Below are positions 5,293-56,219 of a stretch of DNA of 64,000 nucleotides, piece by piece. The translations under genes and the position numbers were made by a program. The first letter of the stretch is position 1. The number at the start of each line of letters is the position of its first letter. The stretch is from sequence record KC801932; one strand, given 5' to 3'. Below the pieces are notes generated by a model. It was not told the DNA's origin, did not search any database, and worked only from the letters and a program-made list of their open reading frames with translations. This stretch comes from Escherichia phage Lw1.

Positions 5293-7190
5293 TCAACCCT
5301 TGAAAATTTATGTTTTCCGTTTACCCAGTCTTTACGCGGATCGGAATCATCACCGAAACACAGTTCCAGAACGTCTTTGTATTCGTCGCCCAGTACGATT
5401 GTATCGTATTTCAACTGGTCGCCCAACACCCGATCGTAATCTTCTTTACGCAAAGAACCCAGCCCTTTGATGTATCGTACCTCTTTCGCTTTATCACGGA
5501 AAGGCGTGAAATCGTCCAGAGAGTAGAACCATTTTTCTTCACGTCCGACTTTCGCAATGATAATCGGTGTGCGAATATACCGGATCTTTTTCTTCGCGAA
5601 CAACTCAGGCCAACGGCTAAAGAATGCAATTAACAGGGTGAGAATATCGCCCCCGTCAACGTCAGCATCCACCATGATCCCGATGTTGTCGTAAGTCATT
5701 TCGGACGAGTCGCCTGGATGGAGATTCAGGATCGCCATTAACTCGAATAATTCTTTGTTTTTGAGAATGTCGGAAATGCTCATTCCCCAGGTGTTCAACG
5801 GTTTGCCACGTAGCGGAAACGCGCCTTGTGTCTCTTCGTTTCTGCACTCGATAAACTGCCCCACAGCGGAATCACCTTCCGTCAGAAACAAAGTGGTTTC
5901 GACTCCATCGGTATCAATTCCTGATGCTGGAACATGTTTTGCAACCTTCGCCTTTTTCGCTTTCTTTTTCGCTTTCGTAATGGCTGCTGCTTCTGCTGCC
6001 TGTTTGCGAATCAAAGCGGACTCGATGATCGGAGTGATTATTTCAGAAGTATCCATAATCTGTTTCGCGATCTTCTTGTAGTTCAGTCCGGCGTGGTTGT
6101 TGAACTCCCCAGCAGTGTTTGTCAGTTTTTCTTTCGTCTGACTATCAAAAGCTGGTGCATTGAAGTTATGCAAAAACACGACCAAAGTCAAACATTCTTT
6201 TACACGGGCTTTCGGGATCTCGATAGCGTGTTTCTTCTTGATCATCGGTTCCAGTTCGGCATAGATACCATCGATCATGCAATCGACGTGTACACCACCG
6301 TTTTTTGTGTCAAGACCGTTGACAAATGATTTCTGTTTGAACCCGTCTTCTGTGCTTGCCAGGATGAAACTGATTTTGTTGTTTGTCTGAACAATCGTTT
6401 TCTCTCCGTACATCGCACCATACATCGCGAATTTATTCGGGAGAACTTCATTGTTGTACGTAAATTTAACCGAAGGGAATGCCACTGCAAGCGCCATAAG
6501 GCGATCTTTGATGACTTCCTTTGTTTCTTCATCGATACCATCCACACCGAAGATAGAGAAATCAGGGGTAAACTTAACAGTGGTTCCCTGTTCTTTCGTC
6601 GGGCTGGTTCGGTAATCCATGTTCTGTGCGCCGTCAGTACAGTTGATAGTTACTTTGCGCTTACCGTTGGATGTCTCACCGATAAAGATTGAACTGTAAC
6701 AGTTCGTCAGGAAAGAACCTACACCGTTCATCCCCATTGTTACGCGGTTTTCATCATCGAAGTTCGAACCTGATTTTGCCATAGTCCATGCTGCAACAGG
6801 TTTAGGGACGATTTTACCTTCCGGCGTTCTTACGTCATCTTGGGGGATGCCTCGCCCGTTGTCGGAGATTGTCACCAAATTATGATCAATCTTCACTTCG
6901 ATTTTGTTCGCGAATTTAAAATCTGTGCGGATCGCTTCGTCAATAGAGTTATCGAGGATTTCGTTGATGATTTTCACCAGACCTTCGACATATTCCACTT
7001 TGCGGAACTTACCCTGAATGAAGCGTTCGTGTGCTTCTCGGTTCACTGAACCCACATACATGTTAGGACGTTTGCGAATGTGATCGCGATCACTTAGGCA
7101 GAATGATTCATCGACTTCCACGCCTTTTGGCGTTTCCGGTACTTTCTGCGGTTCTTCTTCGTCCATTAAGAAATCTAAACTCATATTCAC
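5289..7190 (-). CDS. 39: DNA topoisomerase II large subunit (GyrB-like, gene 39 fused with gene-60 portion)
   Basis: 633 aa; N-terminus parallels T4 gp39 (MY.GS, HERF, NS.DE.IRT.FKFANKI, DNGRGIPQ); longer than T4 gp39 alone, so uninterrupted 39/60. Confidence 0.9.
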   Translation of the reverse strand: MNMSLDFLMDEEEPQKVPETPKGVEVDESFCLSDRDHIRKRPNMYVGSVNREAHERFIQGKFRKVEYVEGLVKIINEILDNSIDEAIRTDFKFANKIEVKIDHNLVTISDNGRGIPQDDVRTPEGKIVPKPVAAWTMAKSGSNFDDENRVTMGMNGVGSFLTNCYSSIFIGETSNGKRKVTINCTDGAQNMDYRTSPTKEQGTTVKFTPDFSIFGVDGIDEETKEVIKDRLMALAVAFPSVKFTYNNEVLPNKFAMYGAMYGEKTIVQTNNKISFILASTEDGFKQKSFVNGLDTKNGGVHVDCMIDGIYAELEPMIKKKHAIEIPKARVKECLTLVVFLHNFNAPAFDSQTKEKLTNTAGEFNNHAGLNYKKIAKQIMDTSEIITPIIESALIRKQAAEAAAITKAKKKAKKAKVAKHVPASGIDTDGVETTLFLTEGDSAVGQFIECRNEETQGAFPLRGKPLNTWGMSISDILKNKELFELMAILNLHPGDSSEMTYDNIGIMVDADVDGGDILTLLIAFFSRWPELFAKKKIRYIRTPIIIAKVGREEKWFYSLDDFTPFRDKAKEVRYIKGLGSLRKEDYDRVLGDQLKYDTIVLGDEYKDVLELCFGDDSDPRKDWVNGKHKFSRVD

Positions 7191-15598: not shown

Positions 15599-16624
15599 TC
15601 ATTTTTTCGGTGATTTGTTCCACGACTTAAATCGAAGTTTTGCCATGAGTCCAGAAACAGTATTATCTTTCAAATACTGCATAATTTCGGCTTTGGTTGC
15701 ACCGTCAGTTTTTATCATTTCGTTGATATCTTTTGACGACCACGGGCTATTATCCCACATCACAACCTTTTCGCCGGACTCAATTAATTTTAAAAGGCGT
15801 GAACAAGTATCAGGGTGACGGGCTTCGTTGTCAAGTACCCAAACACGCATATTTTTATACGGAACCTCAGACAACGCCAACTGTCCACCAGTGATCGCCC
15901 CTGCATTATCAACAAACAGGCTATCTAATGGCCCTTCAAGGAAGTAAACCGTTTTCAACGGGTCTATGGTGTCTTGTCCATAGATTTTCGTTGACTGCTC
16001 ACATGCTTTGATAGTCATGTATTTTGCTGCTGCATTGTCACGCAGAGCACGTCCCTGGAACGATTCAATCTTACCTTTGTTGTCAAAGATAGGGATCACT
16101 AAACGCGGTTCATCCTTCGGCAATGGGTACGCATCAGGAGTGATCGAGTTTACCAGGTGTTGCCATTGACGCGTAAACCAGAGGCGATCATATTTGTCTT
16201 TAGGTATGTGGCGACCTGCAACATACTTAATGATAGGGTGACTTTCTGGTAAAGTGTCCAGGCGTTCGCAGAACTGCAATTCAGGAATATACTTCTTCTC
16301 TTCCTTCGGGGGTTCTACATGGGTTTGTTTCGTTTGTTTGCGATCCTTGAACGATTCCATAAGATAATCCCTGTAATCGTCAGGGTAATAATCTTTAAGG
16401 AACACGGTAAACGGTCGGTTATACCCACAGTTAAAACAACCACAGTTCATGTGGTCGCCTTTCTTCGACGGATAGATCCAGAAACGTTTTTTGTGTTTGT
16501 CTTTCATGGAGTCGCCACAAATCGGACAACGGGAATGGATGCTTAACGATCCACCCCGTCGAACGATTTCACTTTGTGGTAATGATCCCATGATACGAGT
16601 TGCAAACTCTATATCAAGATACAT
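15599..16624 (-). CDS. 61: DNA primase
   Basis: 341 aa; N-terminal zinc ribbon (CPICGDS...CGCFNCGY) and C-terminal TOPRIM-like region; T4 gp61 size. Confidence 0.85.
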   Translation of the reverse strand: MYLDIEFATRIMGSLPQSEIVRRGGSLSIHSRCPICGDSMKDKHKKRFWIYPSKKGDHMNCGCFNCGYNRPFTVFLKDYYPDDYRDYLMESFKDRKQTKQTHVEPPKEEKKYIPELQFCERLDTLPESHPIIKYVAGRHIPKDKYDRLWFTRQWQHLVNSITPDAYPLPKDEPRLVIPIFDNKGKIESFQGRALRDNAAAKYMTIKACEQSTKIYGQDTIDPLKTVYFLEGPLDSLFVDNAGAITGGQLALSEVPYKNMRVWVLDNEARHPDTCSRLLKLIESGEKVVMWDNSPWSSKDINEMIKTDGATKAEIMQYLKDNTVSGLMAKLRFKSWNKSPKK

Positions 16625-16632
16625 TATTACCT

Positions 16633-16854
16633 CTATTCGTAAACTTCGTTTTCAGTACCGTCTAACGTGATTTTCCAGTCACAGAATACATCATTAAACG
16701 AACGGGATCTAGGAATATCAACACCAGATGTTCCCTTTCTTACATTCGTATACACAACAACGGTATCGCTCATGTATCGGATTCGGATCGGGAACCATGT
16801 GTAATTATTCGCAGTCACCCATATTCTATAATTCAACGGAGGGAATGGTTTCAT
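16633..16854 (-). CDS. hypothetical protein
   Basis: 73 aa. Confidence 0.4.
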   Translation of the reverse strand: MKPFPPLNYRIWVTANNYTWFPIRIRYMSDTVVVYTNVRKGTSGVDIPRSRSFNDVFCDWKITLDGTENEVYE

Positions 16855-17342
16855 TCTTCACTCTTCATAATTTTACGTTTGCGTTTATGAGGACGCGTAG
16901 AACCCAGGACTTTTGGCCCTTTGTTCGTGATCGCGCCAGTGGTAACACCAGAAGCAATATTTTCAACACTACCGCCTGAATCACCAGCGACCATTTCTTC
17001 ATTCATGATTTGACGCATTTCTGGCATGTTCATCATGATCATTTCGTGGTCTTCTTCCGTCAGGTTATAACGGTTGCGTAGCGAGTCGTACATGCTCGTA
17101 AGGTTCATGAACCCAGACATATAGGGAACCGCATTTAAACGGCGCTTGATGTGTCTAACAGAGCGATGGAACGGGGAATATGCTTCCTGTTCTTCCTTCG
17201 TCTTAGGGTTCTTGATTACTTCCCCTTGACCGTCGATGATTCCCAGCTTGTACGCCGTCCATTCGGTAAAGGGTTTTTTCAGTAGGCGAATCATTCGCAC
17301 ACTGTAAGTTAAATCCATGTTTTTTACTAATTGATCGCTCAT
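16851..17342 (-). CDS. hypothetical protein
   Basis: 163 aa; basic C-terminal tail. Confidence 0.5.
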   Translation of the reverse strand: MSDQLVKNMDLTYSVRMIRLLKKPFTEWTAYKLGIIDGQGEVIKNPKTKEEQEAYSPFHRSVRHIKRRLNAVPYMSGFMNLTSMYDSLRNRYNLTEEDHEMIMMNMPEMRQIMNEEMVAGDSGGSVENIASGVTTGAITNKGPKVLGSTRPHKRKRKIMKSEE

Positions 17343-17347
17343 AGTCT

Positions 17348-18133
17348 TTACTCTATTGTGAAAGTGAAAAGGTTTTGCGCGGGTTTGGTTTCCGGTTCGG
17401 GGAATTCCATGCAGACAATTTCACACAACGGCTTCACGCCTTTCCAGTCCTCCAGATAGTATCCGGTATCAATGCCGCAACCAGGTTGCATTTCAAGGCC
17501 AGTTTCATCGAGAAACTTTTTACATTTTGATGACGTTGTTGATTCATCTTTCCTAAAATAACGTTCACCGGAGTATCGGAAGTTAGCGGACATTTGCGGG
17601 AGGATGAACGTACCCATACGGGCAATCTGTGAAGCACGTTCGATCACCTTATATTCAAATTCCGCGCCTGTATACTTACCCTTAAAATCGGATGTCTTTA
17701 TCTTCCCGAAAGGTGGATTACTGATCGCCATATCAAACAGAGTATCAAACTCAGTCGTTAATGCGTCTGCATTAATCCAGGTCGCTTCCGGTACGATACG
17801 CTTACCCAACTTATAGTATGTATGGTTTAACTCAACACAGACGATTTCACGCGGTTTTGCGTACATCATCATATGAATCATCGCAAAGGATAAACCACCA
17901 ATACCAGCGCAAAGGTCAACAACACTTCCGCTTGTGCAAGCATCGATCGTGAAATCGCGAGCAAGCCCAATCGGGGTAAAGAATGCCCCTAACTCAGAAT
18001 TATTCGTAAAAGCACCTTCATGGAAGTTCTCAATAATGAATAACTTCTCTTCATAGGTTAGTGCTTTGTCAGACTCCACCAGATCCATTATCTGATTGTG
18101 TTTCTTCGTTTCCGCTTTTGTTAACTTCGCCAT
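17348..18133 (-). CDS. putative N6-adenine-type DNA methyltransferase
   Basis: 261 aa; GAFFTP, SAM-binding VDLCAGIGG, catalytic NPPF; motif order suits a gamma-class amino-methyltransferase. Confidence 0.65.
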   Translation of the reverse strand: MAKLTKAETKKHNQIMDLVESDKALTYEEKLFIIENFHEGAFTNNSELGAFFTPIGLARDFTIDACTSGSVVDLCAGIGGLSFAMIHMMMYAKPREIVCVELNHTYYKLGKRIVPEATWINADALTTEFDTLFDMAISNPPFGKIKTSDFKGKYTGAEFEYKVIERASQIARMGTFILPQMSANFRYSGERYFRKDESTTSSKCKKFLDETGLEMQPGCGIDTGYYLEDWKGVKPLCEIVCMEFPEPETKPAQNLFTFTIE

Positions 18134-18473
18134 TGTCCCAACTATACAATAATGTTGATTCGTTTGGATAGAATTCCCACCCGTCTACATATCCGGTTTC
18201 CCAGTCAGTAGTTTGGTCAAAACCACAGATCCATTCATACACACCTGGCGGCATTTCAACGGAATCAGGTAGCCCGATATCTTCCGCACTGCGTCCACAT
18301 TCAAAGAATGAATCATGTATGTTTGGTCGAGATAATACAGTAACATAACCTTCGTCGTCAATAGCCACAATCCATTTCGAACTGTGAGGACTATCGAAAA
18401 CTGGTCCTTCATCAGGAATTGCTTGCATTTCCACGTTTCCCAAGTCAAAATTTCCCCAGTCAATATTATTCAT
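18069..18473 (-). CDS. hypothetical protein
   Basis: 134 aa; 3' end overlaps the methyltransferase start by about 65 nt. Confidence 0.5.
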   Translation of the reverse strand: MNNIDWGNFDLGNVEMQAIPDEGPVFDSPHSSKWIVAIDDEGYVTVLSRPNIHDSFFECGRSAEDIGLPDSVEMPPGVYEWICGFDQTTDWETGYVDGWEFYPNESTLLYSWDNGEVNKSGNEETQSDNGSGGV

Positions 18474-18700
18474 TTCACTAAACCCTCTTTCAAACCTTCT
18501 TTGATTGCTTTAAGAACACCAATGAACGCATCTTTACCGCCCATAGCACCGATGATAATCATAAGCCCCATTACAAACCCTGCTGCTGCGATCCTGAAAA
18601 GGTTCCATGCAAACGGGATAGCCATTAAAACCAGCCACGGGAACGGGAATCCCATCAGCGCGTTCAGAACAAGTAAGATAAAAGCGATTGCAAGTTTCAT
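18470..18700 (-). CDS. membrane protein
   Basis: about 76 aa from internal ATG (MKLAIAFILLV); three hydrophobic segments. Confidence 0.5.
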   Translation of the reverse strand: MKLAIAFILLVLNALMGFPFPWLVLMAIPFAWNLFRIAAAGFVMGLMIIIGAMGGKDAFIGVLKAIKEGLKEGLVK

Positions 18701-18764
18701 GATGTCCTCCTTTTGTTTAATATAAGGTATCACTTTTCACAGGTGATTGCAATACCTACAAATA

Positions 18765-18790
18765 CAAAAAAGCCCCGAAAGGGGCTTTTA
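18765..18790. terminator. bidirectional intrinsic terminator (A-run, AGCCCC-GAAA-GGGGCT, T-run)
   Basis: read directly between the 18470 and 18793 genes. Confidence 0.65.
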
Positions 18791-18792
18791 TT

Positions 18793-19047
18793 TTATGCTT
18801 TGTTGATTAGATACCGGAGAACGTTTTTCGCTTGTTCCTCATTACAACCAACTTTGAAATCAGGGTCGATCGGAAGGAAGTTCCAGAGGAATTCAACACT
18901 ACCTTCAACGTCAGCTTTAGCGCCTTTCAGCATTTCAACAAGTAAACCTCTGTTTACTACGCTGTTGACTACTGCATCGAAATAACCACTGCTGAAATTC
19001 AGTTCTGGGTTCAGAACTTCGTCGTATGGGTTGTTCAGTAAGTTCAT
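18793..19047 (-). CDS. hypothetical protein
   Basis: 84 aa; AAGGAG before ATG; bidirectional terminator at 3' end. Confidence 0.5.
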   Translation of the reverse strand: MNLLNNPYDEVLNPELNFSSGYFDAVVNSVVNRGLLVEMLKGAKADVEGSVEFLWNFLPIDPDFKVGCNEEQAKNVLRYLINKA

Positions 19048-19120
19048 TTGGTATCTCCTTTTAATCTTTTGTTGTCTACGGGAGTCATATTATCATACTG
19101 ACTACCTGTGTCAACAACTT

Positions 19121-19270
19121 TTTAGATTATCGGGTACTTTTTACAACCCATCGAGAGAATGCAGGAAATACACCTGCAACAGCAACGGTAATCACCACCC
19201 ATACAGCGATTTTACCCACAGTCAATAGAATCAGCGGAGAGAATACCCACCACCAGGAAGCAGTAGCCAT
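19121..19270 (-). CDS. possible small transmembrane peptide
   Basis: 49-codon ORF absent from track (MATASWWWVFSPLILLTVGKIAVWVVITVAVAGVF...); in frame with gp41 beyond its stop; no clear SD. Confidence 0.3.
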
Positions 19271-19360
19271 AAGGCCAACTTGTGCGAGTTTTAAACCCAA
19301 CAGGATCAGAAATACAACGGATAAATTTTCACAGTTTACCTTTAGGGGGCCGTAGCCCCG

Positions 19361-20797
19361 TTAAAATTCAATGTTCATAGATTTTGCGGCTTCGGCTAAC
19401 TTACTTCTGTTACCCTCTGCCTGTTTTACCATAGCGCCTTGTGCTTCTTCAACAGTTTTCGGCATCTGACGACCTTTATAATCAGATTTAAACCCGATAT
19501 CGCTGTTGTCGGTATCCATCCAGCGCTGGTTTCCCTTACGTACTTCAAGTTTGAAATGGTTGAAATGATTCTTGTCACCATAACGAGACTTGATTTGCTT
19601 AAACACCTGCAAGCCCTGATCGGCTAGTTCATCCGTTTCAATCACCGCTAACATAAAGTCGGCAGTAGCTGGCAAACCAGCAGATTCGGCAACATCACCC
19701 ATGCTAATATCAGAAGCGTCCCATGCGTTACGAGTTGTTTGCGCACCAGTCCACATTACTGTATTAGTTTCGACAGCTAAACCGCGAAGTTCTTCGGCAA
19801 TCGCTTTAACCAGAATGTATGTGTTTTCAGCACCACGCACACGGGTAGAAGCACAGATCCCCAGGTAATCGATAATGATTACATCAGGAACAAAGTTCTT
19901 CTTCAATTTAAGCTCTTTAATCAGCGCTTTGAAGTGGTTTGCGTTTGCCCCTGCTGTTGGGTACTGCTTAACGATTAAACGCCCGACCTTAGTCTGTTTG
20001 AGGCGTTCCATGCGGTTTTTATAGTCCGCATAGGTGATATTACCATTGTCGATATCATCAAGCGATACATCAAGTAAATTCGCATCAATACGTTTAGAAC
20101 AAACATGTTCAGCCATTTCCATGCTGATGTAGAGAACGTTTTTACCTGATTGCAGATAATCAGCGGCAAGAGAACACAGCCCTAATGATTTACCAACGTT
20201 AACACCAGCCATAAGGATGTTCAATGTTCCTCGTTCCGCACCGCCTTTTGTAATGGCGTTCAGGATCGGGATATTGAAAGGGATCTTCATCGCTTTGGAC
20301 TGGTAAAGCATCCAGCGTTTTTCGTAGTCTTCGAAGTAATCATGACCGACCGAACTATCGAAGCTAATCGCCAACGCCTCAGCCATAATATCAGGGATAG
20401 CCCCAACATCAGGGATTTTGTTGTTGCGTTCGCCAGCAGGTTTTTCCGCGTTTGCCTGGATCTCGATTGCGCGTGACAGGGCGCGATACATCGCCTTGTC
20501 TTTGCAATACGTTTCCGTTTCCTTCATCAACCAATCTAAATCTTCCGGTGCATTTTTCATGCTGCGGATCATCTTCTTGGTGTCTTCGTAAACTACATCG
20601 CTAAGACTCCGTTTTTCAAGCGCAACCTCTAACGCTGTCTGTGAAGGAATGCTGTTGAATTCCTGTACGTGCTTGTCCATCAGATCATAAAGGACTTGCG
20701 CGTTACCTTCGAAATAGTCGCGTTTTAAATGGGGCCATGCCTGAACAAAATACGTGCCATTAAAAACCAGATTTGAAAATATTGTTTCGACGATCAT
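19361..20797 (-). CDS. 41: replicative DNA helicase (DnaB-like)
   Basis: 478 aa; Walker A (GVNVGKS) and RecA-like core; T4 gp41 size and position beside uvsX. Confidence 0.9.
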   Translation of the reverse strand: MIVETIFSNLVFNGTYFVQAWPHLKRDYFEGNAQVLYDLMDKHVQEFNSIPSQTALEVALEKRSLSDVVYEDTKKMIRSMKNAPEDLDWLMKETETYCKDKAMYRALSRAIEIQANAEKPAGERNNKIPDVGAIPDIMAEALAISFDSSVGHDYFEDYEKRWMLYQSKAMKIPFNIPILNAITKGGAERGTLNILMAGVNVGKSLGLCSLAADYLQSGKNVLYISMEMAEHVCSKRIDANLLDVSLDDIDNGNITYADYKNRMERLKQTKVGRLIVKQYPTAGANANHFKALIKELKLKKNFVPDVIIIDYLGICASTRVRGAENTYILVKAIAEELRGLAVETNTVMWTGAQTTRNAWDASDISMGDVAESAGLPATADFMLAVIETDELADQGLQVFKQIKSRYGDKNHFNHFKLEVRKGNQRWMDTDNSDIGFKSDYKGRQMPKTVEEAQGAMVKQAEGNRSKLAEAAKSMNIEF

Positions 20798-49529: not shown

Positions 49530-49607
49530 GGCCCCTTAGCTCAATTGGTTAGAGCGAACCCCTCATAAGGGTGTGGTTTCCGGTTCAAGTCACGGAAGGG
49601 GCCACCA
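49530..49607 (+). tRNA. tRNA with CAU anticodon (Met or lysidine-dependent Ile)
   Basis: hand-folded: 7-bp acceptor stem GGCCCCT/AGGGGCC, D-arm GCTC..GAGC, anticodon loop CUCAUAA, T-loop TTCAAGT, encoded CCA; one A-G mismatch in anticodon stem and one G-A in T-stem. Confidence 0.6.
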
Positions 49608-50199: not shown

Positions 50200-50481
50200 A
50201 TGAAGTTCCGTAAATATGATAGTCGCAATCATAACAGGTATGACGAAAGCTGTTTTATACCAATGAGCGCAAAAACATTTAAAGAGCGGTATGGGTATAG
50301 CTTTACTGAATGGAAATCTGAGTTAGATAAAGACGATTATCGTCGTAACTTTAAATTCAGTGAATGTTATTGTGACGATGATCCATATGATCAAGATATA
50401 TACGGGACAACAACACCTATCATTGAACGAACGATTGACGAACTTTATGATTCTGTTTGTTTGTCAGCAGACGAAATTTAA
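50200..50481 (+). CDS. hypothetical protein
   Basis: 93 aa; followed by terminator. Confidence 0.5.
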   Translation: MKFRKYDSRNHNRYDESCFIPMSAKTFKERYGYSFTEWKSELDKDDYRRNFKFSECYCDDDPYDQDIYGTTTPIIERTIDELYDSVCLSADEI

Positions 50482-50486
50482 TCAAC

Positions 50487-50512
50487 AGGCTATCTTCGGA
50501 TAGCCTTTTTTC
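50487..50512 (+). terminator. intrinsic terminator (AGGCTATC-TTCG-GATAGCCT + T6)
   Basis: 8-bp stem, UUCG loop, T-run. Confidence 0.7.
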
Positions 50513-50522
50513 TGGAGAAACT

Positions 50523-51092
50523 ATGCGCTATTTAAAATACGCAAGCTGGATCTTACTGGTTCCGGTAGACATTATCACAGGTATCCTGGCTATCTTGCTG
50601 GCCCCCTTCGTGGTTCCGTTCTATGACGAAAAAGTAGGACATTTGCCTAAAGGGTTCCGATGGATGGAAACCTACGACAACCCGATCGATGGTGACGGTG
50701 GACACATCGAACGCTGGAAAGATATTCGAAAATGGGGCGCTGTCGGTGTCTATGCTCAACGTGTAGCATGGCTATGGCGTAACAAGGCGTATAACTTCGC
50801 GTATCACGTGCTGGGACGTGAGTCTATATCACACACCTACTGGAAAGGAAACAAACTGGTAGACAGCAGTTCAAGCGATCCTAAACATCACGGCTTCCTG
50901 GTGATGTGGAACGAATCTGCATGGGGTGTGTTCGGCTTCGTGCCGTGGCTACGGGTGCATAACATTCAATTCTGTCTGCGTGTCTATTGCGGGTGGAAAC
51001 TGAAATCAGAAGTAAACAACCCAGACAACAAAGACCGTGTGATGCTGGCATTCCACATCAACCCGTTCCGGTTCTATAAGGTAAACACATGA
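50523..51092 (+). CDS. membrane-anchored hypothetical protein
   Basis: 189 aa from ATG (MRYLKYASWILLVPVDIITGILAILLAPFVV). Confidence 0.5.
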   Translation: MRYLKYASWILLVPVDIITGILAILLAPFVVPFYDEKVGHLPKGFRWMETYDNPIDGDGGHIERWKDIRKWGAVGVYAQRVAWLWRNKAYNFAYHVLGRESISHTYWKGNKLVDSSSSDPKHHGFLVMWNESAWGVFGFVPWLRVHNIQFCLRVYCGWKLKSEVNNPDNKDRVMLAFHINPFRFYKVNT

Positions 51093-51367
51093 TCGAAGAT
51101 ATCAAGGGGTATAAACCCCATACCGAAGAAAAGATTACGATTGTAAATCGTATCAAAGCAGTTGAAAATGAAATGGGTGCAATCCTCGATGATCTGGATA
51201 AACGATATTCAGGAGACTATGCGTGTTCAGATCTGGAATCACACACAGAAAAAGAACTTGATGAAATGCTCGAACGCACACATCAAATTCAACTGGCAAA
51301 AGACCGACTGAAAGAAGCCTCTATGTGGGCGTGTCGTGCGGTATTCCAGCCAGAAGAAAAGTATTAA
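51089..51367 (+). CDS. hypothetical protein
   Basis: 92 aa. Confidence 0.5.
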   Translation: MIEDIKGYKPHTEEKITIVNRIKAVENEMGAILDDLDKRYSGDYACSDLESHTEKELDEMLERTHQIQLAKDRLKEASMWACRAVFQPEEKY

Positions 51368-51371
51368 AACC

Positions 51372-51402
51372 AAGCCGTTGCCGAAAGGTAGCGGCTTTTT
51401 TC
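51372..51402 (+). terminator. intrinsic terminator (11-bp stem, GAAA loop, T-run)
   Basis: AAGCCGTTGCC-GAAA-GGTAGCGGCTT followed by TTTTTTCGTTTTT. Confidence 0.7.
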
Positions 51403-52405: not shown

Positions 52406-52706
52406 ATGTCGAAACGATGGATGTAATGTTGGTCATTGTATCTTTTATTTTGGGTTATTGGGCGGCATCATGAAATACTATGGATTCAAAACGAGTCATT
52501 TCGGTAAAGCATACCGCACTGACAACATCGATCGCAAACGTCCGTACTATGATTCCCTTGTACGTGCAGGGCGCAAACGTGCTCGCCAGGAAGGGAAGAA
52601 GCAAGGAGAATCCGAGCTATGAACTGGAAACAAATAGTCGGAATTATTGCAGGTGTTATCATCGGACGCGGTTTGTATGATCTAATCTTTTCGGCGGGGG
52701 TTCATT

Positions 52707-53147
52707 GTGGACATTGGTTCGGGTAGTCAATATCCATCATGTGCATTGAGCAACTTCGCCCCGCATCCGTTCACTTTTGACGGGGTAGAATGTGCATCAA
52801 TGGAGGGTTTTTTACAAAGCCTGAAATACAGCAACCCAGATATGCAAGCGCATGTGTGTACTCTGGTAGGTAAAGCCGCCAAGTTCAAAGGCAAGAAAAA
52901 GAAATGGTATCGCGATCAGACCCTATACTGGAAAGGTACACCGATTCACCGTGAGTCCGAAGCGTATCAGATTCTTATCGAAAACGCGTACAATGCTCTT
53001 TTCCTGAATGACGGGTTTCGCCGTGCGTTGAAAGCAACCGGAAAAAGCACCTTGACTCATTCAATGGGAAAGAATAAGATGAATGAAACAGTGCTCACCG
53101 AACGTGAGTTTGTTCGAAATTTAACCCGACTAAGGGATCTGCTATGA
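52707..53147 (+). CDS. NADAR-domain protein (YbiA-like, DUF1768)
   Basis: 146 aa; N-terminal YPSCALSNFAPHPFTFDGVECASMEGFLQSLKY fits the NADAR signature; GTG start. Confidence 0.7.
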   Translation: MDIGSGSQYPSCALSNFAPHPFTFDGVECASMEGFLQSLKYSNPDMQAHVCTLVGKAAKFKGKKKKWYRDQTLYWKGTPIHRESEAYQILIENAYNALFLNDGFRRALKATGKSTLTHSMGKNKMNETVLTEREFVRNLTRLRDLL

Positions 53148-53828: not shown

Positions 53829-54050
53829 ATGAGTTATGTAGTGTATTTTGACTGTTCGGATCTCGACCCGTTTGTTCTGCAACAGGCGAAGAAATACCAT
53901 CAGGATATCGTTGGCATCAGTGTAACAAATGATGATATGCTGTGCATTGAATTTGATTATTATCGTACATTCGAACGTGATTATTTCATGGGTGAACTGA
54001 ACGCGTTCAAAAGTACCCTTTTCTTTGATCGTTATGAGGTTAAATCTTGA
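53829..54050 (+). CDS. hypothetical protein
   Basis: 73 aa from ATG (MSYVVYFD). Confidence 0.4.
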   Translation: MSYVVYFDCSDLDPFVLQQAKKYHQDIVGISVTNDDMLCIEFDYYRTFERDYFMGELNAFKSTLFFDRYEVKS

Positions 54051-54664
54051 AACCAGTTATTCTTACCGATATTGACGGGATCGCCGTAAAATGGCAAAGC
54101 GGCCTCCCGTTCTTTTTGTCTAAACACAATATGCCTACTGATATTGCTCTGGACATGGTCACCGATGAAAGATTTCGTGATATGACCGAAATATTCGGGT
54201 GTGATCACCAACTGGCTAAAATCCTGATGGAAGAATATAACAACAGTTCGTTTATTCGCTATCTAAGCGCGTATGACGATGCGTTAGTTGTGATCAACCG
54301 TCTGAAAGCCAAATATGATTTCGTCGCTGTCACGGCGCTGGGAACCACTCCTACGGCAAGTCTGAACCGTATTGCAAACCTGAACACATTGTTCCCGTCT
54401 GCATTCAAAGAAGTGATGGTCGTCGGACATGGTGAAACAAAAACACATCGTTACCTGGAAGCAAAAGCCAAATACGGATCGCGGTTGGTTTGCTTTGTTG
54501 ATGACCTTGCGGTAAACTTAAACGAGTGTCATAACGTCATCAGTCAGTTGCCGTTATTTCACATGTTGCGTGGTGAACGTGAACAACCAAATGTTCCGCA
54601 CAGTATCGTAAAATCATGGTTTGAAATTGAAGAGAAATTAGATGATCTTATCAATATTGAATGA
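54047..54664 (+). CDS. HAD-superfamily hydrolase-like protein (possible 5'(3')-deoxyribonucleotidase)
   Basis: 205 aa; N-terminal ILTDIDGI resembles HAD motif I; C-terminal VDD. Confidence 0.5.
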   Translation: MKPVILTDIDGIAVKWQSGLPFFLSKHNMPTDIALDMVTDERFRDMTEIFGCDHQLAKILMEEYNNSSFIRYLSAYDDALVVINRLKAKYDFVAVTALGTTPTASLNRIANLNTLFPSAFKEVMVVGHGETKTHRYLEAKAKYGSRLVCFVDDLAVNLNECHNVISQLPLFHMLRGEREQPNVPHSIVKSWFEIEEKLDDLINIE

Positions 54665-56165
54665 ACTTGCATCGACTCTGAAAACCTCAGAGAAGGAAGC
54701 AATTTTAAAACGTAATGCAAACAACCTATTGTTGAAAGAGATTTTCCGAATTACGTACACAAAACAGATTATGTTCTATGTGCGTAAGTTTCCCCAGGTG
54801 GACGGCAAACCAGGAACAACCCCGCTATCAAATGCAATCGCGGACCTGATGTCCGATTTAGCATCGCGGAAGTATACAGGTAATGCAGCCCGCGATCGCC
54901 TGATGGATATTGTGTCATCAGTAAACGAGAACGATCGCGAAGTGTTGCGCCGTATCATTAACCGCGATCTTGAATGTGGTGCGGGTACAACTCTGCCAAA
55001 CCGCGTATGGAAGAAACTTATTCCAGAACAGCCTCAATGCCTCGCTACGCCGTTTAGTGAAAAAGCCTTAAAACGTATTCGCTTCCCTGCTTACTCTCAG
55101 CTTAAAGCCGATGGTGCGCGTTGTATGTCGGATCTGTTAGAAGACCAGATTCGCAAAGCAACCCGCGCGGGAAATGAGTATACAGGTTTGGTTGATCTGG
55201 ATAAGGATTTGAAAAAGATCCGCGAATATCTGGGTTATGATGTTGTGCTGGATGGAGAATTGATTTATGTCCCTGGTGGAAAATCCGTTGAAGTTCCTGT
55301 GTCTCCTGTTACGTTTAGCCTTGCTGGGTTTATGGGCGATGACGATGATTCTGTTACTGACTTTGTGGCTGATGTTAGGCGGGAAGCCACCGAGGGAGAA
55401 AAACAGGAAGAGGCGAAACGCGAAGAAGGAAACGGAATCGTAAACAAATCCCTGAAAGGCACTATCAGCGACGAAGAACAACAGAACATCGTTTATGTTG
55501 TCTGGGACATCATACCGTATGAAGTTTATTATGGTGATGCTCCGAGTGTTCAGCCTTACAAAGATCGCTTGTCTATCCTTGATGGTGTTATCGCTGGCAC
55601 TGGTGTAACATCGGTTCAGTTGATTCCTTCTATCCTGGTGCAAACCATCGCGGAAGCAAAACAGGATTACAACAATTACCGCAATGACGGTAAAGAGGGT
55701 TCAATCCTGAAAAACGTTGATTTCGTCTGGAAGGATTCACGCGTTGCGGATCAGGTTAAGTTGAAGAACAAAACCCCGATCGAACTACGAATCATCGACG
55801 TATACGCGCACACCAAAGAACCTCATAAGGTCGGCGGGTTTGTTGTTGAGGACTTATCAGGAGAAGCCAGGACGAACACAGGTTCCGGTTTAACTGATAC
55901 AGACTACCGTTACGATGAAGACGGTGTTACCCGCGTGTATATCCCGTTAGACGAACGTGGAGAACTGGATCGCGAGTATATCATGACGAACAAAGATGAC
56001 TATATTGGCGCTATCGTCGAAATGGAAGTTGACGGACTCCAGAAGTCTAAAACGCGTAAGAAGGGCGAACCTGAATACAGTTTCTTCTTGCCAATCATCA
56101 AGAAGATTCGACGCGATAAGACGGAACCTGATGATATTCATGTGGTTTTTGCCGATCTGTTTTAA
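54642..56165 (+). CDS. 30: ATP-dependent DNA ligase
   Basis: 507 aa; N-terminus MILSILNELAS parallels T4 gp30; adenylation motif LKADGARC. Confidence 0.9.
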   Translation: MILSILNELASTLKTSEKEAILKRNANNLLLKEIFRITYTKQIMFYVRKFPQVDGKPGTTPLSNAIADLMSDLASRKYTGNAARDRLMDIVSSVNENDREVLRRIINRDLECGAGTTLPNRVWKKLIPEQPQCLATPFSEKALKRIRFPAYSQLKADGARCMSDLLEDQIRKATRAGNEYTGLVDLDKDLKKIREYLGYDVVLDGELIYVPGGKSVEVPVSPVTFSLAGFMGDDDDSVTDFVADVRREATEGEKQEEAKREEGNGIVNKSLKGTISDEEQQNIVYVVWDIIPYEVYYGDAPSVQPYKDRLSILDGVIAGTGVTSVQLIPSILVQTIAEAKQDYNNYRNDGKEGSILKNVDFVWKDSRVADQVKLKNKTPIELRIIDVYAHTKEPHKVGGFVVEDLSGEARTNTGSGLTDTDYRYDEDGVTRVYIPLDERGELDREYIMTNKDDYIGAIVEMEVDGLQKSKTRKKGEPEYSFFLPIIKKIRRDKTEPDDIHVVFADLF

Positions 56166-56184
56166 ATAGCACTTTTTGTTTAAA

Positions 56185-56219
56185 AAGCCCTTGCATACGT
56201 GCGAGGGCTTTGTTATATT
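56185..56219 (+). promoter_or_regulatory. terminator hairpin with embedded promoter (-35 TTGCAT in stem, 17-bp spacer, -10 TATATT)
   Basis: AAAGCCCTTGCA-TACG-TGCGAGGGCTTT hairpin after ligase; -10 begins the 38-nt leader that recurs identically at 10825..10862. Confidence 0.5.

Follow-up and report, generated by a model that had tools for sequence, protein, structure and literature searches.

The small genes that precede DNA ligase in Escherichia phage Lw1 (sequence record KC801932) include one that starts at GTG and whose product raises two questions: is it a NADAR-domain protein, and would it counter a host defence that ADP-ribosylates DNA? Both ideas come from a preliminary description of the window, by which we mean the whole stretch of 64,000 nucleotides that was analysed. 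The gene and the elements around its start are as follows.

52707..53147, + strand: coding sequence of the adfN (gene 30.3) ortholog, 146 aa, GTG start, TGA stop; putative phage-type NADAR ADP-ribosylglycohydrolase
52696..52701, + strand: Shine-Dalgarno-like GGGGGT, read from the sequence, 5 nt 5′ of the GTG
52619..52726, + strand: hydrophobic ORF of 35 aa, MNWKQIVGIIAGVIIGRGLYDLIFSAGVHCGHWFG; its ATG overlaps the upstream stop (ATGA), and its last 20 nt lie within the beginning of adfN

The ORF listing places the TGA stop at 53145-53147 on the + strand, and the N-terminal string from which a NADAR relationship had been proposed corresponds exactly to residues 9-41 of the 146-aa product (YPSCALSNFAPHPFTFDGVECASMEGFLQSLKY). 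The GTG start and the overlap with a short upstream ORF, both recorded in the preliminary description, are borne out, the overlap being the 20 nt shared with the 35-aa frame at 52619-52726. The GTG is a credible initiation codon, since the ortholog of Cronobacter phage leE (98% identical) has ATG at the same position, GGGGGT lies upstream, T4 gp30.3 has a similarly long N-terminal leader ahead of its conserved PSCALSNF motif in the BLASTP alignment, and gene callers give the same 146-aa product in most close relatives. GGGGGT at 52696-52701 presumably acts as the ribosome-binding site. The 35-aa ORF is conserved (82-97%) in 56 phage records, has no CDS annotation of its own in leE and has no PHROG match; this putatively coding frame could specify a small membrane peptide or be a mere coupling ORF, and may couple the translation of adfN.

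A GTG in place of ATG, overlapped by another frame, could also be what is left of lost expression in a decayed, non-functional allele, and a natural defective allele is indeed known from phage RB69 (PMC11825919). Against such decay, the Shine-Dalgarno-like motif is properly spaced and overlaps of the ATGA type are usual among these genes; the coding sequence itself also bears on this reading and is considered below.

Sequence comparison points to a T4-type, Pseudotevenvirus-like phage in which this gene is orthologous to T4 gene 30.3 (adfN). The Pfam family PF08010, "Bacteriophage protein GP30.3", matches residues 9-144 of the protein over profile positions 2-138 of 138 with an E-value of 9.9e-56 and 187.8 bits (gathering cut-off 36 bits), and BLASTP aligns residues 1-146 with residues 4-152 of T4 gp30.3 at 42% identity and 58% similarity (E 2e-36). 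A search with the Lw1 protein returned 4,725 homologous protein clusters, and of 50,697 phage records 1,506 contain a homolog, nearly all being T4-like; with the PF08010 match, these counts put the ORF far beyond chance. Forty-eight columns are invariant among orthologs at 68-99% identity (alignment A1). The surrounding DNA agrees in its affinity, the window being ~86-93% identical to Pseudotevenvirus-type T4-like phages of Citrobacter, Cronobacter, Enterobacter and Klebsiella. The protein also matches phrog_652, covering only positions 129-272 of the 296-column profile. This partial match fits the 292-aa protein A0A1B4XWL9 of Tenacibaculum phage pT24 (BFVD), which has a gp30.3/NADAR core and ~145 extra residues and whose model superposes on our query model with a TM-score of 0.93; fused phage NADAR variants thus exist.

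Nearly all public orthologs in these 1,506 phage records are labelled "hypothetical protein". Two of the more distant ones, from Sinorhizobium phage phiM9 and Morganella phage Mm5, have a deposited CDS that begins ~30 codons after the onset of homology:

phiM9 piece, 101-553: gp30.3 ortholog region; homology starts before the deposited CDS
Mm5 piece, 98-562: gp30.3 ortholog region; homology starts before the deposited CDS

As a result of these late starts the annotated phiM9 and Mm5 proteins lack the SNF...E...K catalytic motif, and the starts are probably mis-called owing to non-ATG initiation codons. A truncated C-terminus was suspected in phages EC-W2 and KLB3, where the tblastn match spans residues 1-136 only; the EC-W2 CDS proved to be full length, at 147 aa, with its last 10 residues divergent. 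The practical value of the present assignment is one of annotation, as orthologs are mostly called hypothetical and some have a wrongly placed start that removes the catalytic motif.

The relationship to NADAR proteins proper is more distant. The HMMER search of PF08719 (NADAR) suggested in the preliminary description gave no match to the Lw1 protein at E ≤ 1, its own Pfam family being PF08010, and the kinship becomes visible only by profile-profile comparison and fold. Taking the lack of a NADAR profile match as disproof, as had been proposed, would wrongly reject a correct idea. Among 37 close relatives, 11 have weak, sub-threshold PF08719 matches (best E 5.3e-4), and several bacterial YbiA-like proteins have precomputed matches to PF08010 and PF08719 together. 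Sequence searches of the PDB returned noise and no NADAR chain, whether run with the single protein in phmmer (Ino80, E 0.7) or with the family profile in hmmsearch (plant defensins, E 0.3). When alignment A1 was instead compared by hhalign with an alignment of the YbiA family (A2), the two matched over 93 columns with 94.8% probability (E 4.9e-8); the alignment of YbiA relatives was required for this value, the single YbiA sequence giving 60%.

An AlphaFold2 model built from alignment A1 (pLDDT 91.5, pTM 0.87) has the NADAR fold, reduced to the core domain. The structure prediction that had been called for thus came out in favour of the NADAR claim: the top three Foldseek hits in the PDB are YbiA (2b3w), the G. 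lovleyi NADAR (8bat) and PnNADAR (8bau), which are the three solved NADARs. Among the viral models of BFVD, members of the gp30.3 family fit best (TM 0.91-0.95), and most of the next hits carry NADAR in their name. The hhalign match, the predicted fold and the weak PF08719 matches in relatives together support placing the protein in the NADAR superfamily, within the "phage NADAR / gp30.3" family, by remote homology.

Alignment with T4 AdfN and YbiA locates the residues on which activity would depend, and the model adds a C-terminal element.

52803..52805, + strand: codon of E33, which corresponds to the catalytic residue E36 in T4 AdfN and to E48 in E. coli YbiA (BLASTP, hhalign)
52824..52826, + strand: codon of K40, which corresponds to the catalytic residue K43 in T4 AdfN and to K55 in YbiA (BLASTP, hhalign)
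53058..53060, + strand: codon of H118, the histidine that sets phage NADARs apart; aligns with T4 H123 (BLASTP)
53100..53141, + strand: C-terminal alpha-helix, residues 132-145 of the AlphaFold2 model; intact

Both E33 and H118 are invariant in alignment A1 and in a broader alignment, A3, which takes in orthologs down to 29% identity, including those of Sinorhizobium, Morganella, Aeromonas, Acinetobacter and Ochrobactrum phages. K40 is invariant in A1 and nearly so in A3 (at least 90%), with Arg in one Acinetobacter phage. H118 lies in the last strand, opposite the invariant E125 of YbiA, when the hhalign match is extended by one column past its end. At the third catalytic position, members of the YbiA family are reported to have Glu, NADARs associated with DarT to have Asp, and phage NADARs to have His (PMC11543638, PMC11125620, PMC12945103).

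This histidine speaks against a YbiA-like role, in which the protein would be a metabolic N-glycosidase that clears reactive intermediates of the riboflavin pathway, a housekeeping enzyme and not an anti-defence one. The Glu that defines YbiA is replaced, and TIGR02464, to which YbiA belongs along with PF08719, aligns with residues 11-50 only (E 0.01), at 16.1 bits against a curated cut-off of 73.7 bits. With YbiA itself (2b3w) the Lw1 protein shares ~22% identity and falls below the family cut-offs; its genomic context also differs from that of ybiA in E. coli, which lies in the dinG-ybiB SOS operon, and the ORFs scanned from 50457 to the ligase yielded no riboflavin gene. As an anti-DarTG1 role is moreover defined for the T4 ortholog, we regard the housekeeping reading as highly improbable and retain that of a phage-type NADAR.

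The C-terminal helix bears on the decay of the gene. The RB69 allele that lacks the last 15 residues has lower activity, and its defect has been explained by loss of the C-terminal helix (PMC11825919). The Lw1 protein aligns with T4 AdfN through the last residue of the latter (BLASTP), its frame is full length, the helix is intact and every catalytic residue is kept. Together with the strong conservation among the 68-99% identical orthologs and their 48 invariant columns, this makes a dead allele of the RB69 kind scarcely probable, and the gene is best regarded as intact.

What an intact member of this family does is already known, since the fold, catalytic residues, activity and anti-DarTG1 role of the family were published between 2023 and 2025. 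Resistance of T-even phages to DarTG1 was mapped to gene 30.3, renamed adfN, by Johannesman et al. (Nat Commun 2025, PMC11825919). In that study T4 AdfN was necessary and sufficient against DarTG1 and enough to rescue RB69, and deletion of adfN from T4 and T2 abolished plaquing on DarTG1 hosts. In vitro, the protein strips ADP-ribose from DNA that DarT1 has modified, and it shows no binding to DarT1; its activity depends partly on E36 and K43, the E36A and K43A variants being impaired; and DarTG2 is unaffected by it (PMC11825919). In a transposon screen, too, adfN proved conditionally essential when the hosts carried DarTG1 (bioRxiv 10.1101/2025.11.20.689424). An independent in vitro study reported that T4 gp30.3 removes ADP-ribose from guanine and not from thymine (PMC11125620). 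Methods section 4.2 of that paper gives 'residues 1-208' for its construct of T4 gp30.3, a protein of 152 aa; T4 gp61.2/AdfA has 208 aa. The figure may be a typing error or may denote a different construct, which bears on how far that paper's T4 data can be relied on.

The protection that T4 AdfN gives appears to be tied to T-even infection. In the absence of infection it fails to save E. coli from DarT1, and phages other than T-evens gain little from it (PMC11825919); a phage factor beyond AdfN may therefore be needed for its action.

The suggestion that the Lw1 gene could counter a DarT-type host system is accordingly supported, as the T4 ortholog reverses DarT1 guanine ADP-ribosylation and counters DarTG1 (PMC11825919, PMC11125620), but it is not new, being the published function of AdfN. 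We consider it likely, from the sequence, the model and the analogy with T4, that the Lw1 protein is a phage-type NADAR that removes DarT1-made guanine ADP-ribose and so counters DarTG1. The protein would be made early, from within the tightly packed small early genes 5′ of DNA ligase, as a minimal, core-only NADAR-fold glycohydrolase. Host DarT1 would ADP-ribosylate guanine (at N2) in phage DNA and thereby block replication; the ADP-ribose would be held in a predicted pocket formed by E33, K40 and H118, and hydrolysis of the guanine-ribose N-glycosidic bond would free ADP-ribose and restore unmodified DNA. Phage replication would thereby become possible in cells that carry DarTG1.

What we observe in Lw1 itself is the ORF, its family and fold, the conserved catalytic residues, the intact C-terminus and the synteny. 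We infer that the enzymatic activity and the anti-DarTG1 phenotype carry over from the 42%-identical T4 protein to the Lw1 ortholog in its own hosts, which are probably Citrobacter, Enterobacter, Klebsiella or Cronobacter. If so, an intact adfN predicts resistance of Lw1 to DarTG1-carrying hosts, and adfN status would be useful when choosing therapeutic phages for Enterobacterales. The value as a discovery is small, the function being published and the ortholog being carried by ~1,500 sequenced phages.

The resemblance to T4 AdfN is extensive: the homology spans the full length, both proteins belong to PF08010, both fold as the NADAR core alone and find the same three neighbours in the PDB, they share the catalytic Glu, Lys and His, the C-terminal helix is intact in both, and both genes lie 5′ of 30.2 and DNA ligase. 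The Lw1 protein differs in being 42% identical, in its GTG start, in being six residues shorter, and in a conserved Lys-rich loop of the Lw1 clade, AAKFKGKKKKW, where T4 has AAQQAGRSYARA. At the level of the locus, four small ORFs separate the 30.3 and 30.2 homologs in Lw1, whereas the T4 genes abut. The Lw1 gene also has no counterpart of the internal out-of-frame ORF 30.3′ of T4 (T4 piece 5403-5630): no + strand ORF of ≥30 aa in another frame lies wholly inside it, and only those at 52619-52726 and 53144-53353/53148-53330 touch its ends, so 30.3′ is not conserved in this clade.

These differences leave some room for an active phage NADAR with another substrate, which might be guanine-ADP-ribosylated RNA or DNA modified by further guanine-specific ADP-ribosyltransferases such as pierisin/ScARP-like toxins, or with a broader range than that of T4 AdfN. 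All NADAR families tested, that of T4 included, hydrolyse guanosine-ADP-ribose on RNA in vitro, the T4 phage NADAR weakly and less efficiently than DarG1 (PMC11833690), and the divergence from T4, with the conserved lysine-rich loop at K56-K65 where the T4 sequence differs, would be compatible with such a shift. Yet loss of DarTG1 resistance is the sole phenotype found in T4, the Lw1 protein shares its catalytic residues with T4 AdfN, the family-specific His among them, and phage NADAR is not among the listed removers of cytidine-ADP-ribose (PMC12945103). We therefore judge a different substrate unlikely. It is very unlikely, in our estimation, that AdfN of the Pseudotevenvirus clade differs functionally from that of T4, by binding DNA itself without a T-even co-factor or by accepting wider substrates, or that gp30.2 is a partner of AdfN; such a difference would be suggested by the identity of only 42% and by the conserved lysine-rich loop (~residues 56-65). 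Removal of guanine ADP-ribose made by DarT1 is the reading we prefer.

Other NADARs that act on DarT products are less similar. The DarG1 antitoxins (BC4488-type NADARs, for example that of G. lovleyi, 8bat) differ from the Lw1 protein in having Asp in place of His at the third catalytic position, and in an N-terminal helix and beta-sheets that form the DarG1 DNA-binding channel and that the Lw1 protein lacks (146 versus 219 aa). Unlike darG1, the Lw1 gene is an orphan with no adjacent darT; no ART domain was detected in the scanned + strand neighbours, the 35-aa ORF at 52619-52726 having been scanned against PHROGs only. T4 AdfN is unable to replace DarG1 in uninfected cells (PMC11825919, PMC11125620). 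AdfN-Bas32 and AdfN-Bas60, of T5-like phages and Vequintavirinae, are similar in being phage-encoded orphan NADARs that counter DarTG1, but they belong to other NADAR branches, were co-opted independently and work without infection, whereas the Lw1 protein falls in the T4-superfamily cluster.

The locus itself retains the T4 arrangement, in the company of further small genes.

49530-49607: tRNA-Met, the sole tRNA of the window, 5′ of adfN
50457-51092, + strand: DUF7338 ORF, 211 aa (PF24027, E 1e-64), with a hydrophobic N-terminal segment, between tRNA-Met and the Acb2-like gene
51089-51367, + strand: ORF of 92 aa with an Acb2/Tad1 hairpin domain (PF24729, E 2.2e-17; phrog_717)
51372-51397: strong terminator-like hairpin with an 11-bp stem, directly after the Acb2/Tad1 ORF
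54047..54664, + strand: T4 gene 30.2 homolog (tblastn 47.5% identity, E 2e-57; phrog_420)
54642..56165, + strand: ATP-dependent DNA ligase, T4 gene 30 homolog (tblastn 39% identity, E 1e-99), the synteny anchor
56184-56211: terminator-like hairpin after the ligase

The gene had been placed among small ORFs between a tRNA and ligase, and this position is confirmed: small ORFs fill the interval between tRNA-Met and the ligase at 54642-56165, tightly packed on the + strand, and several are coupled by ATGA overlaps. The order 30.3 - 30.2 - ligase on one strand is kept as in T4. The flanking terminator-like hairpins suggest a single transcription unit from ~51.4 to 56.2 kb; a promoter scan gave 13 sites against 17 ± 4 in shuffled sequence, and we claim no promoter. 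The 92-aa Acb2/Tad1 protein, whose gene precedes adfN by ~1.3 kb, probably acts as a sponge for cyclic nucleotides directed against CBASS or Thoeris, and would be a second probable anti-defence gene of this region.

Two further anti-DarT factors of T4, AdfA (gp61.2) and AdfM (tk.4), gave no tblastn match at E ≤ 0.01 in the window, and their homologs may lie outside it. As T4 adfA (61.2) sits between primase and helicase, the corresponding interval of Lw1 was inspected.

15614-16627: primase, T4 homolog
19379-20794: replicative helicase, T4 homolog

This interval (15614-20794, - strand) contains a DNA methyltransferase-like ORF at 17348-18133 (phrog_3820) and two ORFs with no function assigned; the ORFs at the AdfA-syntenic site belong to other PHROGs.

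The gp30.2 homolog that lies between adfN and the ligase has no Pfam match at E ≤ 5 and no PDB sequence match, and its single-sequence AlphaFold model has a pLDDT of 39, too low to use. By eye, the protein carries HAD-phosphatase-like motifs (MKPVILTDIDG... and ...CFVDD...), and in Morganella phage Mm5 the gene adjoining the 30.3 ortholog is annotated as a HAD-superfamily hydrolase.
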